Assembly: GCA_035709325.1 (NCBI GenBank)
Contig: DASTEU010000220.1
Span: 1-28,176, forward strand
Direction: 5' to 3'
DNA from: Candidatus Limnocylindrales bacterium
GTDB lineage: Bacteria > Chloroflexota > Limnocylindria > Limnocylindrales > CSP1-4
DNA length: 28,176 nt
The translations under genes were made by a program, and so were the position numbers. Position 1 is the stretch's first letter, and each line of letters opens with the position of its first letter. Below, in pieces: positions 14,058 through 18,602 of the stretch. The notes under the pieces were generated by a model. It was not told the DNA's origin. It saw only the letters and a program-made list of their open reading frames with translations, and made no database searches.

Positions 14058-15341
14058 TCAGCCCGGCAGCGGCAGCGGGGGAGGTCCCTCGAGCGGCGGG
14101 AGGCCCAGCTTCGCGGCGAGGTAGGCGCCGTCGACGTGGGGTCCGAACAGCGTCGCGGAGGGCAGCTGGTGCTGCCAGGGCAGGCCGAGGAAGGACAAAC
14201 CCGGGACATCGCTGACGCCTCGGCGCTGTCGGGGAAAGCCCATGTCGTCGATGATCGGCAGGTCGATCCACGAGTAGTCGAGCCGGTAGCCGGTCGTCCA
14301 GAGGACCGTCGCGACGCCGGCCGCGGCGAGGTCCAGCTCGTCGGGCGCTGGCGGCTCGTAGTCGACCGGCTCGCGGTCGTCTGGCGGCACGTCGATCCCG
14401 GCCCGCTCGATGTAGGTCTCGATCGGAGGTCGGAAGCGCTCGTCGAAGAATCGGTCGGCGACGGCGAGCTTCGCCGGCAGGTCCGGGGCGAGGATCAGCC
14501 GCTCGCCGTCGACTCGCTCGATCCGCCCGAGCAGGGTCATCCCCTCTTCCGCGAACTTGCGCAGGTTGGTCTCGTACCCTCCGCGGTGGCCCGACAGGTG
14601 CGGATTGCCGGCAAGTCGGGCCCGCGGATCGGGCAGTTGGTCGACCGTCGGAAAGCCGACGCCGAGGGCGGGTCCGCGGAGGAGGAGCGACGCCAGCCAG
14701 CCGAACACGTCGTGGCCGCGATACCGCCGCGGGACCCGGCCTGCCGAACCGACCGAGAGGAACACCCGCCGCCCGGCCTCGCGGAGCTCCTCGGCGATCT
14801 GGACGCCGGACTGGCCGCTGCCCACGACGAGCACGCCGCCCGGCGGGAGCGCCGCCTCGGTGCGGTATTCGTGGGAGTGTAGCTGGGTCACCCGGGCCGG
14901 TAGGTCGCGCGCGATCGGCGGGATCCACGGGACCTGGAAGCCACCGGTCGCGACGACGACCTGGTCGGCCGTGATCCGGCCCTGGTTCGTCTCGAGGGTG
15001 AAGCTGCCGTCGGTCCTTCGAGTCAGACGGCGCACCTCCGTGTCGAGGGCGACAGGCGCTCCGATCGTCGCGGCATACCGGGCGACGCGCGCCACGACCT
15101 CGTCCCGGGGCATGAAGCCATGGGGGTCGTCGCCGTCGTAGGGCTGGCCGGGGAACGAGGCGCACCAGTTCGGCGTGACGACCCGGAACGCGTTCCAGCG
15201 ATCCTGCCAGCCGCCGCCGAGGCTCGATCGCCGTTCCAGCACGATGTGGTCGCGGCCGCCCCGGCCCAGGTACGAGCTCATGGTGAGCCCGGCCTGCCCG
15301 GCGCCGATCACCACCGTGTCGATCCGTGACGGGATGCCCAT
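14058..15341 (-). CDS. Flavin-dependent oxidoreductase/monooxygenase (FMO-like, MSMEG_0569/CzcO-like), about 427 aa
   Basis: Start MGIPSR (ATG 15341, GGAGG RBS). FAD motif VVIGAGQAG, then RWNAFRVVTPNW and VVVATG, NAD(P) motif VLVVGSGQSG, and WTTGY. Confidence 0.9.
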   Translation of the reverse strand: MGIPSRIDTVVIGAGQAGLTMSSYLGRGGRDHIVLERRSSLGGGWQDRWNAFRVVTPNWCASFPGQPYDGDDPHGFMPRDEVVARVARYAATIGAPVALDTEVRRLTRRTDGSFTLETNQGRITADQVVVATGGFQVPWIPPIARDLPARVTQLHSHEYRTEAALPPGGVLVVGSGQSGVQIAEELREAGRRVFLSVGSAGRVPRRYRGHDVFGWLASLLLRGPALGVGFPTVDQLPDPRARLAGNPHLSGHRGGYETNLRKFAEEGMTLLGRIERVDGERLILAPDLPAKLAVADRFFDERFRPPIETYIERAGIDVPPDDREPVDYEPPAPDELDLAAAGVATVLWTTGYRLDYSWIDLPIIDDMGFPRQRRGVSDVPGLSFLGLPWQHQLPSATLFGPHVDGAYLAAKLGLPPLEGPPPLPLPG

Positions 15342-15484
15342 GTAACCCCTCCGATCCGGTCGCGCCACCCGATCATGCCCCGCCGCGGTCGTTTCGGGAA
15401 GCCCGGGACACGAACGCGCCGCCCGCCCGCGGGGGGGGGCGGGCGCCGCGGCTGGTGGCGGCAGGGCCGAGCGCGGCCCGACTC

Positions 15485-16303
15485 CTACAGCTCGATCCGC
15501 GACATCCGGCTGATTGCGATGCCGGCCAGGCCGGCCGTGATGAGCGCCCATGAGACGGGCGTGATCCACGAAACCTCCGCCCCCGACAGCGCCGCGGCCG
15601 GCCACGCCAACATCGACGTCGGCAGGAACGGCGAGATGTCGAACGGCAGGAGGCCCCCGAACATCGCCGGAAGGGCGAAGACCGCCAGGCCGATTGCGAC
15701 GATCCCCGTCTGGGCCGGGACCACGACCCCGGCCGCGAGCCCGACGGTCGCGAAGAAGACGATCACCGCGGCGACGCCGATTGCCAGGCCCGCGAGCGCC
15801 TCGACCGGCGGCATGCCGTAAAGGCCGATCACGACACCGACCGTCACCGCGAGCGGGACCAGCCCGGCTGCCGCGACGAGGATCGCGCTCGACGAGGCCC
15901 ATTTCGAGAGCCTGATCGAACGCCGGGTCACCGGCTTGGAGGCGACCCAGGCAAGGGTTCCGGCCTCGCGCTCGCGAACGATCAGGCTCGCGACAGCGAA
16001 GATCGTGGCAAGAACGAAGATCTGGCCCGACACCGCCGCAAAGAGGTTGTCGAGCGGCTCCTGCGAGCCGATCTGCGGCGGCGCCACGTCCGGCGGCAGG
16101 CTGGCCGCGATCGTGGCCGTGATCCAGCCGTTCGCGGCGGACAGGACCATGAAGGCGCTGACGACCGCGAAGACGATCCAGACCCGACGGCCGCGGACCC
16201 ACTCGGTCGCGTCCTTGCGTAGCAGCGGCCGGAAGCCGGCCAGCCGGCCGAACGAGGTGGTTGCCGGTGCCGAAGCGGCGCCGGAGACGATCGAGGCGGT
16301 CAT
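15485..16303 (-). CDS. ABC-2-type exporter permease (272 aa)
   Basis: LLRKDATEW near the N-terminus, IVREREAGTLAWVASKPVTR motif and six TM segments. Its start is coupled to the ATPase stop. Confidence 0.9.
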   Translation of the reverse strand: MTASIVSGAASAPATTSFGRLAGFRPLLRKDATEWVRGRRVWIVFAVVSAFMVLSAANGWITATIAASLPPDVAPPQIGSQEPLDNLFAAVSGQIFVLATIFAVASLIVREREAGTLAWVASKPVTRRSIRLSKWASSSAILVAAAGLVPLAVTVGVVIGLYGMPPVEALAGLAIGVAAVIVFFATVGLAAGVVVPAQTGIVAIGLAVFALPAMFGGLLPFDISPFLPTSMLAWPAAALSGAEVSWITPVSWALITAGLAGIAISRMSRIEL

Positions 16304-17259
16304 GCCGCACGCTCCTTGGTATCGACGAGGCGGAGGAAGACGTCCTCCAGCGCGAGACGGACGAGGCCGTTCTCGATGAGGGTCAGGTCGCGGTCGGCCG
16401 CGAACCGGGTGATGCCGCGCTGAACGCGCGACGCATCGTCGGGGTGGATCCGGATGACGTACGTCCGGACGTCGCCGTCGCGGCCGGTCGCCTCGACCGA
16501 GAGCGCCCCCGGCAGGGCCGCCAGGTCGGGTGCCGTGCCGTCGTCGGCGCCGCCGATCGCGACCCGGAGCTGGTCAAGGGTGAAGCTCGCGAGCAGGTCG
16601 GTCGTCGCCGACTCGCGGACGAGGCGGCCGCCATCGAGGATGGCGACACGATCGCTCACGCGCTGGACGTCGTCGAGGATGTGGGTCGAGTAGAACACGG
16701 TCGTCTCGCCCTTCAGCCGGGCCATGAGGTCGAGGACCTCGCGGCGGCCGATCGGGTCGAGGGCGCTGACCGGCTCGTCGAGCAGGAGGACCGATGGCCG
16801 GGTCACGAGCGCCTGGGCGATGCCCAGCCGCTGGCGCATCCCGCCCGAGTACGTGCTCGTCCGCCGACCCGCAGCGTCGGCCAGCCCGACCGTGGCGAGG
16901 ATCCGGTCGATCCAGGCGCGATCGGTGGCCGAGGCGTCGGGCGCCAGCGAGGCGACGAACTCGAGGACTTCGCGCCCGGTCATCCAGTCGTAGAAGCGCG
17001 GCTCCTGGGCGAGGTAGCCGACGCCGTGTCGGTAGGCCTCGCCGGCTGCGAGCGGGATTCCCCCGACGCTGGCCGTCCCCGACGTCGGTCGGATGAGGCC
17101 GGCGAGGACCTTGAGGACGGTCGTCTTGCCCGCGCCGTTCGGGCCGAGGAAGCCGTAGATCGAGCCGGCCGGCACGTCGAGGTCGAGGCCGGTCACGGCC
17201 CGAACCTCACCGTAGTGCTTCGTGAGGCCGGCCGTCGTGATGGCCGATGAACTGGTCAT
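16300..17259 (-). CDS. ABC exporter ATP-binding protein (about 319 aa)
   Basis: Start MTSSS (ATG 17259, GGAG RBS). Motifs GPNGAGKTT, YSGGMRQRLGIA, LLDEP, STHIL and C-terminal LEDVFL. Confidence 0.95.
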   Translation of the reverse strand: MTSSSAITTAGLTKHYGEVRAVTGLDLDVPAGSIYGFLGPNGAGKTTVLKVLAGLIRPTSGTASVGGIPLAAGEAYRHGVGYLAQEPRFYDWMTGREVLEFVASLAPDASATDRAWIDRILATVGLADAAGRRTSTYSGGMRQRLGIAQALVTRPSVLLLDEPVSALDPIGRREVLDLMARLKGETTVFYSTHILDDVQRVSDRVAILDGGRLVRESATTDLLASFTLDQLRVAIGGADDGTAPDLAALPGALSVEATGRDGDVRTYVIRIHPDDASRVQRGITRFAADRDLTLIENGLVRLALEDVFLRLVDTKERAA

Positions 17260-17657
17260 GTGCTGGTCTCCGCGCTGGCGAGTCTCGGGCTGCTCGCACT
17301 GGAGACAGCCTCGCGTCGGGCGGGCTCGCTGTCGTCGGCCCGTGGTGCCGATCCCGGCACTCCGTTCAGCGCGACGGCGCTGGCGGCAGCGCCCCCGGCG
17401 GATCGGGCGACCTCGTCCCGGAGTCGCGGGTGCGGCAACTCGGCGCATGGACATTCGTCGCATTCGACGCCTGCGATGTCGCCGGCGCGCGGGCTCGCGG
17501 GCCGGCTCGGCTCGGCCCGCCCGAGTAGGGCGCCGAATGCACCGCCGATCCCGATGACCGTGGGTGCATACCGCCCGGCCGGGCGGTCGCCACGCTGCGC
17601 ATCGCCGCCGGGCGTCTCCGCCGAAGTCACCGCCGATCCCGATGACCGTGGGTGCAT
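17256..17657 (-). CDS. Possible small hypothetical protein (may be spurious)
   Basis: Its stop overlaps the ABC ATPase ATG (ATGA) and it contains a short hydrophobic stretch and CDECPC. However, its 5' part runs through non-triplet repeats and has no clear RBS. Confidence 0.25.
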   Translation of the reverse strand: MHPRSSGSAVTSAETPGGDAQRGDRPAGRYAPTVIGIGGAFGALLGRAEPSRPASPRAGDIAGVECDECPCAELPHPRLRDEVARSAGGAAASAVALNGVPGSAPRADDSEPARREAVSSASSPRLASAETST

Positions 17658-17829
17658 ATCGCCCCGCTGCGCATCGCCGCCGGGACCCTGGTCAGGCGCG
17701 GCGAGATGGCGGGCCGGGGCCAGGCTTGGCCGGGCGCGGCCAGGCCGGGGCCAGGCTTGCCCGGGCGCGGCCAGGCCGTCGCACCTTCGACGCGGCGTGA
17801 TGCATCCACAGTCATAAGGATCCGCGGTG
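17540..17829. repeat. Three copies of a ~30-nt element: two direct (17540-17570 and 17628-17658, 31 nt identical) and one inverted (17800-17829, 25/30 identical)
   Basis: Minus-strand copies read ATGCACCCACGGTCATCGGGATCGGCGGTG. The plus-strand copy reads ATGCATCCACAGTCATAAGGATCCGCGGTG. Confidence 0.88.
17712..17777. repeat. 31-nt tandem duplication built of GGCNN-like pentamers
   Basis: GGCCGGGGCCAGGCTTGGCCGGGCGCGGCCA at 17712 and again at 17743 with one mismatch. Confidence 0.88.
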
Positions 17830-17897
17830 AAATTCGCGCCGCCCCGGCGGCTGCGGCCGGCGCGGCCGGCGCACCCGGCGCGGCCGGCGCGCGAGGG

Positions 17898-18602
17898 TCA
17901 GTCGAGGCCGCTCCCGGGTCGGACGAGGCCCGCCTCGTAGGCGAGGACGACGGCCTGGGCGCGGTCCCGCAGGTCGAGCTTCAGGAGGGCGTGCGAAACG
18001 TGCGTCTTCACGGTCGGCTCCGCGAGAACGAGGCGGTCGGCGATCTCGCGGTTCGAGAGCCCCCGGGCGACAAGCTTGAGCACTTCCAGCTCACGCTCGG
18101 TCAGCTCGCGCAGGCGCTCGTGGCGTTCGCCGGCCGGTGCCGGCAACCGGTCCCGAAAGCGGTCCAGCAGCTGCCGCGTTACGGACGGCGCCAGCAGCGC
18201 ATCGCCGGCGGCCACGATCCGGATGGCCTGGGCGAAGTCGGCCGGCGGCACGTCCTTGAGGAGGAAACCGCTGGCCCCGGCCCGTAACGCCTCAACGACG
18301 TACTCGTCGGCGTCGAAGGTCGTCAGGATCAGGACCCGCGGCGGACGTCCGGCAGCGAAGCCAGCATCGCCGTCGCCGGACCGCCCGACGAGGCGACGGG
18401 TCGCCTCGACACCGTCCATCACCGGCATGCGGATGTCCATGACGACGACGTCCGGCGCCAGTCGGGCGGCCTGCTCGAGGGCCTGTCGGCCGTCAGTCGC
18501 CTCGCCGACGACCTCGATGTCGGGCTCGTCCTGGAGGATCATCCGGAAGCCGACCCGGACGAGCTGCTGGTCGTCGACGAGCAGGACGCGGACGGCCGTC
18601 AT
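17898..18602 (-). CDS. NarL/LuxR-family response regulator (234 aa)
   Basis: VLLVDDQ, DVVVMDIRMPVMDG, ILTTFD, GFLLKD and C-terminal HTH LTERELEVLKLVARGLSNREIA..TVKTHV. Confidence 0.97.
   Translation of the reverse strand: MTAVRVLLVDDQQLVRVGFRMILQDEPDIEVVGEATDGRQALEQAARLAPDVVVMDIRMPVMDGVEATRRLVGRSGDGDAGFAAGRPPRVLILTTFDADEYVVEALRAGASGFLLKDVPPADFAQAIRIVAAGDALLAPSVTRQLLDRFRDRLPAPAGERHERLRELTERELEVLKLVARGLSNREIADRLVLAEPTVKTHVSHALLKLDLRDRAQAVVLAYEAGLVRPGSGLD

Follow-up and report, generated by a model that had tools for sequence, protein, structure and literature searches.

The question raised by this locus is what kind of element the repeat cluster at positions 17531-17838 of the window represents and which protein, if any, it belongs to. 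The window, the whole stretch of 28,176 nucleotides that was analysed, is the entire 28-kb contig C220 of a metagenome-assembled genome (MAG) of a Candidatus Limnocylindrales bacterium (G000; 2.55 Mb, 467 contigs, 72% G+C, 58% complete); the cluster lies between a response-regulator gene and an ABC transporter gene and consists of two direct and one inverted copy of a unit of approximately 43 nt with the core GATGACCGTGGGTGCAT, bracketing a 31-nt tandem array. The comparisons presented here, all of them based on nucleotide and protein sequences, make the following answer rather likely: The cluster would be one of the loci of a lineage-specific family of dispersed doublets, which contain no gene, carry the core as putative site of an XRE-family protein, were copied from the arms flanking the XRE gene, and have been kept by selection. 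The core is probably the docking site of this small, fast-evolving XRE protein, which is encoded elsewhere in the genome. The cluster is composed as follows (E values from nhmmer searches; bit scores from the sequence-only model R1; TRF, Tandem Repeats Finder).

17531..17572, plus strand: repeat unit copy 1 (E 4.6e-12; 51.7 bits), with a 5' block CGCCGAA..CACC followed by the core at 17553-17569
17571..17586, no strand: perfect 16-bp palindrome CCGCCCGGCCGGGCGG, found in the sequence after copy 1 only
17587..17612, plus strand: 26-nt tail TCGCC(A/C)CGCTGCGCATCGCCGCCGGG, first copy (repeat search, 96%)
17619..17661, plus strand: repeat unit copy 2 (E 1.4e-13; 54.1 bits), core at 17641-17657
17659..17684, plus strand: 26-nt tail, second copy (repeat search)
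17712..17778, no strand: 31-nt tandem repeat of 2.2 copies (TRF score 127, 97% matches), the spacer between the facing arms
17796..17838, minus strand: repeat unit copy 3, the inverted arm (E 1.5e-10; 44 bits), core TATGACTGTGGATGCAT in minus-strand reading at 17816-17800
17848..17891, no strand: 9-nt tandem array CGGCGCGGC of 4.8 copies (TRF), between the inverted arm and the response-regulator stop codon

A first-pass annotation made from the letters alone had described direct copies that are identical over 31 nt (17540-17570 and 17628-17658, period 88), an inverted copy at 17800-17829 that matches the 30-mer at 25 of 30 positions after reverse complementation, a common sequence after both direct copies (the 26-nt tail) and the 16-bp palindrome; all of these were recovered. 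The bracketed array is likewise present, although it is better described as the 31-nt tandem repeat than as the pentamer array of that annotation. The two periods within the direct part (88 and 72 nt) differ because the palindrome follows copy 1 only; since the tail follows both direct copies and the palindrome accounts exactly for the period difference, one copy plus spacer was evidently duplicated in tandem and then altered. The inverted arm points to the ABC transporter gene, the two direct arms to the end of the regulator gene.

The 31-nt array varies in soil populations: One contig of run X5 lacks one 31-nt unit. Spacers between facing arms are very often locus-specific tandem arrays (period 9-31 nt, 2-5 copies), as in approximately seven of the 12 doublets of the congener G003 (among L260, L265, L267, L268, L270, L271), at L298 (G208) and at L017:1060-1130; doublets seem to be sites where slippage is tolerated or even promoted.

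Misassembly of the cluster is excluded because contigs of three soil runs tile or span every junction without mismatch: Logan contigs (unitig level) of these runs, which belong to different studies, reproduced 17434-17569, 17541-17653, 17627-17890 and 17632-17976 with zero mismatches (the best holder, run X1, may be the sample behind the window assembly). Read depth was approximately 10- to 20-fold higher over the core, which fits a multi-copy word, and the same arrangement of plus and minus arms was present at the orthologous locus of the sister species and on two metagenome contigs. The runs holding the stretch were nearly all soil metagenomes (12 studies); no RNA run was among the 24 listed.

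Iterated nhmmer searches revealed 29 convincing copies at 10 loci of the incomplete host genome, besides decayed ones, and the intergenic inverted pairs that the first-pass annotation had named as a sign of a REP/MITE family are present. The unit consensus is cgccgAAagTCACCGCCGaTCCcGATGACCGTGGGTGCATa; in 48 copies, 14 of the 16 positions of ATG.C.GTGG.TGCAT were invariant. Each arm combines a weakly conserved 5' block (CGAAAnTCAC) with a strongly conserved core of 16-17 nt, so that the conserved part of the arm is internal and its outer tip fuzzy. Within clusters the whole unit is repeated together with its spacer (periods of 60, 64, approximately 110, and 163 nt); arm number therefore grows by tandem duplication. 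Clusters with both orientations were without exception convergent (plus copies left, minus copies right, GCAT ends facing each other), the whole doublets measuring approximately 110-330 nt.

All loci of the family are intergenic, and their flanking genes are functionally unrelated (HNH endonuclease/CCA-adding enzyme, DinB, pyridoxal-phosphate (PLP) enzyme, pantothenate kinase, subtilase, uricase, Kelch protein, glucose dehydrogenase, peptidase S9). Most copies are located 40-300 nt upstream of a gene start, and several clusters begin 19-80 nt past a stop codon. Among 17 classified doublets, 10 were placed between tandem, four between convergent and three between divergent genes, which looks like insertion into any intergenic region and not like a promoter-centred regulon. 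The position of the window cluster between regulator and transporter had suggested an array of sites through which the adjacent NarL-type response regulator controls the ABC transporter; however, the identical core recurs at nine other loci with unrelated neighbours and no nearby two-component system, and the congener G014 keeps both genes without the repeat. The NarL-type regulator was rejected as partner, and such a site array is now extremely improbable.

Model R1 matched 29 copies in G000 and 27 in G249, the 86% complete genome of a sister species; the other 41 genomes of the genus, which include assemblies of 3-10 contigs, had none or one weak match (genus tallies include the unpublished G009, whose zero repeat counts and weak XRE matches support no positive claim). 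More than two matches to the 17-mer core were found only in G000 and G249 among 401 genomes of the family. Across 185,579 species (one genome per species), multi-copy contigs occurred only in SMAG_U2354, and the remaining approximately 60 single matches were at the level expected by chance; the only other carrier is deposited as 'Candidatus Limnocylindrales bacterium SMAG_U2354'. The repeat had no blastn match in a plasmid collection, and the six exact 17-mer matches on viral contigs were single, none multi-copy. The only exact 17-mer in a non-carrier congener (G008; L003:1490-1520, G008:C11:33387-33403) was rejected as a repeat copy: It lies inside a metallo-beta-lactamase-fold gene, encodes CTHGHPDH, and is read as a coincidence of codon usage.

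The candidate partner came from the largest cluster of the host genome (contig C352), in which three plus copies and two minus copies bracket a minus-strand gene for a protein of 139 aa with an XRE/Cro-C1-type helix-turn-helix (HTH).

L017:1059-1475 (C352), minus strand: XRE-family HTH gene, flanked by the genes of a TrxR-like oxidoreductase and of an ABC exporter

Two units are positioned 83-207 nt upstream of the XRE start and three downstream. Very few close relatives of this protein exist among 5.8 billion proteins, and wherever their context is known, the neighbours agree; on a metagenome contig (L239), an orthologue with 64% identity is likewise bracketed by convergent copies with slightly different cores. 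The gene is also syntenic in congeners without the core of the window (type A), but only 30-55% identical there. Throughout the genus, the XRE orthologue stands between convergent arms at 17 of 18 loci; the arms follow a common two-block plan (CGAAAnTCAC and the core, separated by approximately 20 nt) but have lineage-specific cores:

Core type A: GATGACCGTGGGTGCAT (G000, G249, metagenome contig L239)
Core type B: GATGCCGTTGGTTGCAT (G003, G004, G011, G208, G300, G427)
Core type B variants: GATGCCGTTCGTGGCAT (G015) and GATGCCGTTCTTTGCAT (G424)
Core type C: GCGAnTAGCCGCAT(A/G)T, also given as GCGAATAGCCGCATAT (G358, G310, G174, G236)
Core type C2: GCGAATAGCCGAATAT (G018, G024)
Core type D: TGATGCGAGTCGCGGGAATA (G012)

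Where tested, the core adjacent to the XRE gene was the one dispersed in the same genome (4-55 copies). Type B occurred in 6-55 copies in ten species (55 in G208), nearly all in plus/minus doublets 44-220 nt apart, and its mixed clusters were convergent in 13 of 13 cases in G003 and 10 of 10 in G004; type C occurred in 4-43 copies in five species. In G014 there was no close XRE match, none beside TrxR, and there were no copies of type A or type B. An XRE-ortholog profile also retrieved small syntenic genes (in the order TrxR-XRE-ABC) in five other genera. Convergent arms of the form GATG-N9/10-GCAT, yet with other centres, were found at 8-9 of the 20 loci examined from other genera. Dispersal outside the genus was tested in two genomes and was present in both: G163 had 25 dispersed copies versus 0-3 in 14 congeners, and G106 had 28 copies in the form of tight palindromes with two cores 5 nt apart.

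The vicinity of the XRE gene is particularly rich in doublets: G236 has seven clusters less than 13 kb away from it (C1:534600-547150), and further concentrations were seen at G208:C3:1181000-1392000 and G004:C5:1235000-1449000. This suggests local spread or a regional function, and such clustering may explain why all 11 loci of G249 have counterparts in the 58% complete G000. In G003 (L246:1684-2442, C3), the interval between TrxR and ABC genes measures 3.6 kb versus 1.3 kb and contains, beside the XRE gene, a direct repeat of 300 nt (72% identity) as well as a four-copy array with a 16-nt unit.

The XRE protein has matches to Pfam HTH_31/HTH_3/HTH_26 only, and its type B orthologues are approximately 87 aa long. 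Its nearest solved relatives by sequence are the restriction-modification controllers C.BclI (2b5a), C.AhdI (1y7y) and C.Esp1396I (3clc) and the antitoxins HipB/HigA (E 4.5e-9 to 1e-5). Between core types, XRE proteins shared 42% amino-acid identity on average versus 83% for the adjacent TrxR C-terminus, whereas G208 and G011, which have a common core, shared 88% in XRE and 86% in TrxR; judged from these identities, XRE evolves far faster than its TrxR neighbour. In G000 the reading frame extends across the third plus copy as well as a 21-nt tandem repeat (L017:1056-1165), which adds approximately 36 residues; in the L239 orthologue, it ends at a TGA that overlaps the beginning of the core. 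The additional C-terminal residues of the G000 protein are probably not functional.

All ten loci of G000 have their orthologues in G249 (flanks 86-95% identical), and further metagenome contigs of related strains map to the same loci; at the window locus, the layout of plus and minus arms is kept in four lineages, in which plus arms number one or two and the spacers are unrelated. Between G000 and G249, orthologous copies were 98.6% identical in the core (282/286), 84.5% in the 5' part and 74.9% in the alignable spacer, the contrast between core and spacer being somewhat inflated by an alignment anchored on the cores. Because rare variant cores, e.g. GATGCCTGTGGATGCAT at the C256 locus, were passed on to the orthologues, this pattern argues for purifying selection on each copy rather than for homogenisation.

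Empty sites in relatives, which the first-pass annotation had named as a sign of insertion, were seen at three loci. The intergenic region upstream of the HNH gene measures 32-60 nt in four congeners versus approximately 200 nt with the doublet in G249 (and G000); downstream of the PLP-enzyme gene (PALP-JAB locus) approximately 25 nt in G236 and G014 contrast with a doublet of 225-330 nt in the carriers; and the region between regulator and transporter measures 155 nt without repeat in G014, here the sole outgroup since no type B or C ortholog with both genes adjacent was found, versus 638 nt in the window. The reverse was seen as well: At three loci where G003 has a doublet, the site is empty in G000. 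Comparison of filled and empty HNH and PALP sites revealed no clean target-site duplication, at most a diverged resemblance of approximately 12 nt in G208. Only one locus was common to genomes of different core types. At the intergenic region between the PLP-enzyme and JAB/MPN genes (L013:1108-1478, C79 of G000), G000 and G249 carry a type A doublet, G003 and G208 a type B doublet (L262, L298), and G236 and G014 are empty (L299, L300); the locus could be an insertion hot spot or a case of in-place core replacement.

These observations bear on two other explanations. Inverted arms, small non-coding elements, empty sites and a copy number that varies between species would all be expected of a classical family of miniature inverted-repeat transposable elements (MITEs), i.e. 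deletion derivatives of an insertion sequence (IS) whose transposase gene is missing from the fragmented MAGs; the copies beside the XRE gene would then go back to an old insertion that was passed on vertically. IS copies are usually lost from MAGs, and the completeness of G000 is only 58%. In contrast, no transposase domain was detected among the scanned open reading frames flanking any copy, and neither Y1_Tnp/RAYT (PF01797) nor rve (PF00665) was found in G000 or G249, incomplete genomes in which absence is not proven; the PF01797 searches recovered their positive controls. There was no clear target-site duplication, and the conserved part of the arm is internal; a MITE origin also leaves unexplained why, in all lineages, the arms flanking the XRE gene carry the genome's own core and why cores are conserved in situ. 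A classical MITE family is therefore considered unlikely. As to the REP/BIME-like (repetitive extragenic palindromic/bacterial interspersed mosaic element) or MITE-like family proposed in the first-pass annotation, its outline holds with respect to intergenic inverted pairs and empty sites; the proposed partner genes received no support, PF01797 and PF00665 being absent from the searches of both genomes and DUF559 not having been searched genome-wide. The HNH endonuclease beside the C1 cluster was likewise rejected as cognate protein, as it is 90-93% conserved in species without the repeat.

The second explanation, an ordinary regulon in which operators of a global XRE regulator arose locus by locus without copying, agrees with the sites on both flanks of the XRE gene and with the many copies upstream of gene starts. 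However, the loci have whole units of approximately 43 nt in common and not cores alone, the flanking genes are functionally unrelated, and four of the 17 doublets lie between convergent genes; moreover, orthologous promoters of genomes with different core types do not have the sites in common, empty sites are clean, and the cores differ between congeners. Such a regulon appears quite improbable.

The capacity of the doublet to fold gave rise to two further alternatives. The stem between copies 2 and 3 that had been anticipated in the first-pass annotation can indeed form: Whichever strand of 17610-17850 is folded, a long stem results (z -3.5 and -4.0 versus shuffles), but it is imperfect. Together with the clusters that begin shortly after stop codons, this stem would suit a structured RNA (also considered in that annotation), a hairpin terminator or an mRNA stabiliser as the primary function. 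At a permissive threshold, however, Rfam gave matches at chance level only, the best of which reached 21 bits versus a gathering score of 60, and no family reached half its gathering score; RNAalifold on the 29 copies gave neither a consensus structure nor covariation, the core being invariant rather than covarying. No terminator-like site was found (scans of 17150-18000 returned no sigma-70 promoter and no intrinsic terminator), and the orientation of the units with respect to transcription is inconsistent. An RNA function of this kind is very unlikely. Much the same holds for REP elements and their doublets (REPINs) mobilised by a REP-associated tyrosine transposase (RAYT), which the extragenic, convergent doublets able to form a hairpin, their variable spacers, lineage specificity and vertical inheritance call to mind (PMC3337134): Single units fold no better than shuffles (48 units, mean z -0.10, 2/48 below -2), Y1_Tnp was not found in either carrier genome, and the gene flanked by the repeats encodes an XRE HTH protein. 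The units are not REP-type palindromes; only the doublet folds, by construction, and mobilisation by a RAYT has accordingly very little probability.

The reading in which the doublets derive from the XRE locus can be put as a sequence of steps. The single XRE gene is inherited vertically between the TrxR-like and the ABC-exporter genes, and its protein would bind the core; the doublets, which resemble the two XRE-flanking arms joined without the gene, would have arisen when the common ancestor of the G000 species and its sister acquired copies of these arms alone at other intergenic sites; since then, the copies would have been kept by selection on the core, arm number changing by tandem duplication. 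That the core is the XRE binding site, that the doublets were copied from the XRE-flanking arms, and that changes of XRE specificity are followed by new sets of doublets are, taken jointly, moderately probable on the comparative evidence.

Several observations weigh against this derivation from the XRE locus. All ten loci are common to the sister species, with no sign of recent movement, and the four doublets between convergent genes have no obvious operator use there. The recognition helix (QTTISRLENG) hardly varies between proteins associated with different cores; specificity would therefore have to sit in helix 2 or in the N-terminal arm. The cores of G358/G310 and of G236 are almost alike, yet the XRE proteins share only 47-49% identity, and XRE clades, core types and species phylogeny are confounded in these data. 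The core has no clear dyad, only the outer GATG...CATC being symmetric. As an HTH protein of approximately 90-140 aa without catalytic domain, XRE leaves the copying enzyme unaccounted for. Finally, in G249 the contigs break inside the XRE cluster, and the XRE locus is not assembled.

The surroundings of the window cluster comprise the following features.

Intergenic region, 638 nt: hosts the cluster, between the response-regulator stop codon and the ABC-transporter ATPase start
17898..18602, minus strand: NarL/LuxR-type response regulator (Pfam Response_reg and GerE), whose stop codon borders the cluster
16300..17259, minus strand: ABC transporter ATPase (Pfam ABC_tran), start 272 nt from copy 1

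A HisKA_3 kinase gene is located upstream of the response-regulator gene. The approximately 240 nt between the cluster and the ATPase start (17260-17500) are kept in four related lineages, e.g. GCATGGACATTCGTCGCAT, and probably hold the native control region of the transporter operon. Downstream of the ATPase gene, an open reading frame of 750 aa (14058-16310, minus strand) is similar to flavin monooxygenase/Pyr_redox_3 in its C-terminal half and has no Pfam match in its first approximately 330 residues; it may represent a gene fusion or else two separate genes mistaken for one. Possibly, the window doublet acts on the transporter as a remote operator, or serves as a roadblock or insulator that separates the two operons.

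Dispersed intergenic repeats of bacteria are mostly attributed to REP/RAYT systems or to MITEs derived from a parent IS. In the present family, just one gene is tied to the repeats, and it encodes a small DNA-binding protein without catalytic domain; protein and repeat change together between close species while the core of each copy stays conserved in place. If XRE binds the core, this would be a tractable bacterial case of a DNA-binding protein co-evolving with its own proliferating sites, and would raise the questions of how doublets are copied, what binding at dozens of unrelated intergenic regions effects, and how specificity switches. As a broader and tentative proposal, to which we give somewhat less than even chances, XRE and a self-copying family of doublets carrying its predicted sites may form a long-term partnership across this soil Chloroflexota family, in which each switch of specificity starts a new wave of doublets and the protein either tames the elements or uses them as docking sites (roadblocks, insulators, regulators). 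A rule for finding such pairs in MAGs follows from the arrangement: One looks for the gene of a small regulator that has the dispersed repeat of its own genome on both sides. Literature searches for the core, for such a gene-repeat pairing and for MITE-borne operators found nothing relevant in the searchable literature.

Among known systems, REP/REPIN-RAYT is characterized by extragenic doublets of inverted short repeats with a poorly conserved spacer and by a single-copy gene flanked by repeats; copy numbers in the tens per genome are also common to REP/REPIN and the present doublets (PMC3116915, PMC3337134). The likeness extends to convergent doublets, a repeat-flanked single-copy gene, vertical inheritance and lineage-specific sequence. 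The flanked gene, however, encodes an XRE HTH protein without catalytic domain and not an HUH/Y1 transposase; single units are non-palindromic, arms are multiplied by tandem duplication, and copies number in the tens, not in the hundreds. Because palindromic units and a Y1 transposase, two defining features, are lacking, the family is not a member of REPIN/RAYT. MITEs such as the Correia elements of Neisseria are also small intergenic elements that code for nothing, end in inverted repeats and have empty sites as their counterparts in relatives. The present doublets differ from Correia-type MITEs in having no known parent IS and no clear target-site duplication, in the internal position of the conserved part of the arm, and in a core that is conserved in situ. 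The controller (C) proteins of restriction-modification systems and HipB/HigA resemble the XRE protein in being small HTH proteins whose gene is accompanied by its own (here predicted) sites; those proteins, however, act at one or two operators beside their own gene, whereas in the genomes compared here the site-bearing unit is dispersed 4-55 times and differs between congeners.

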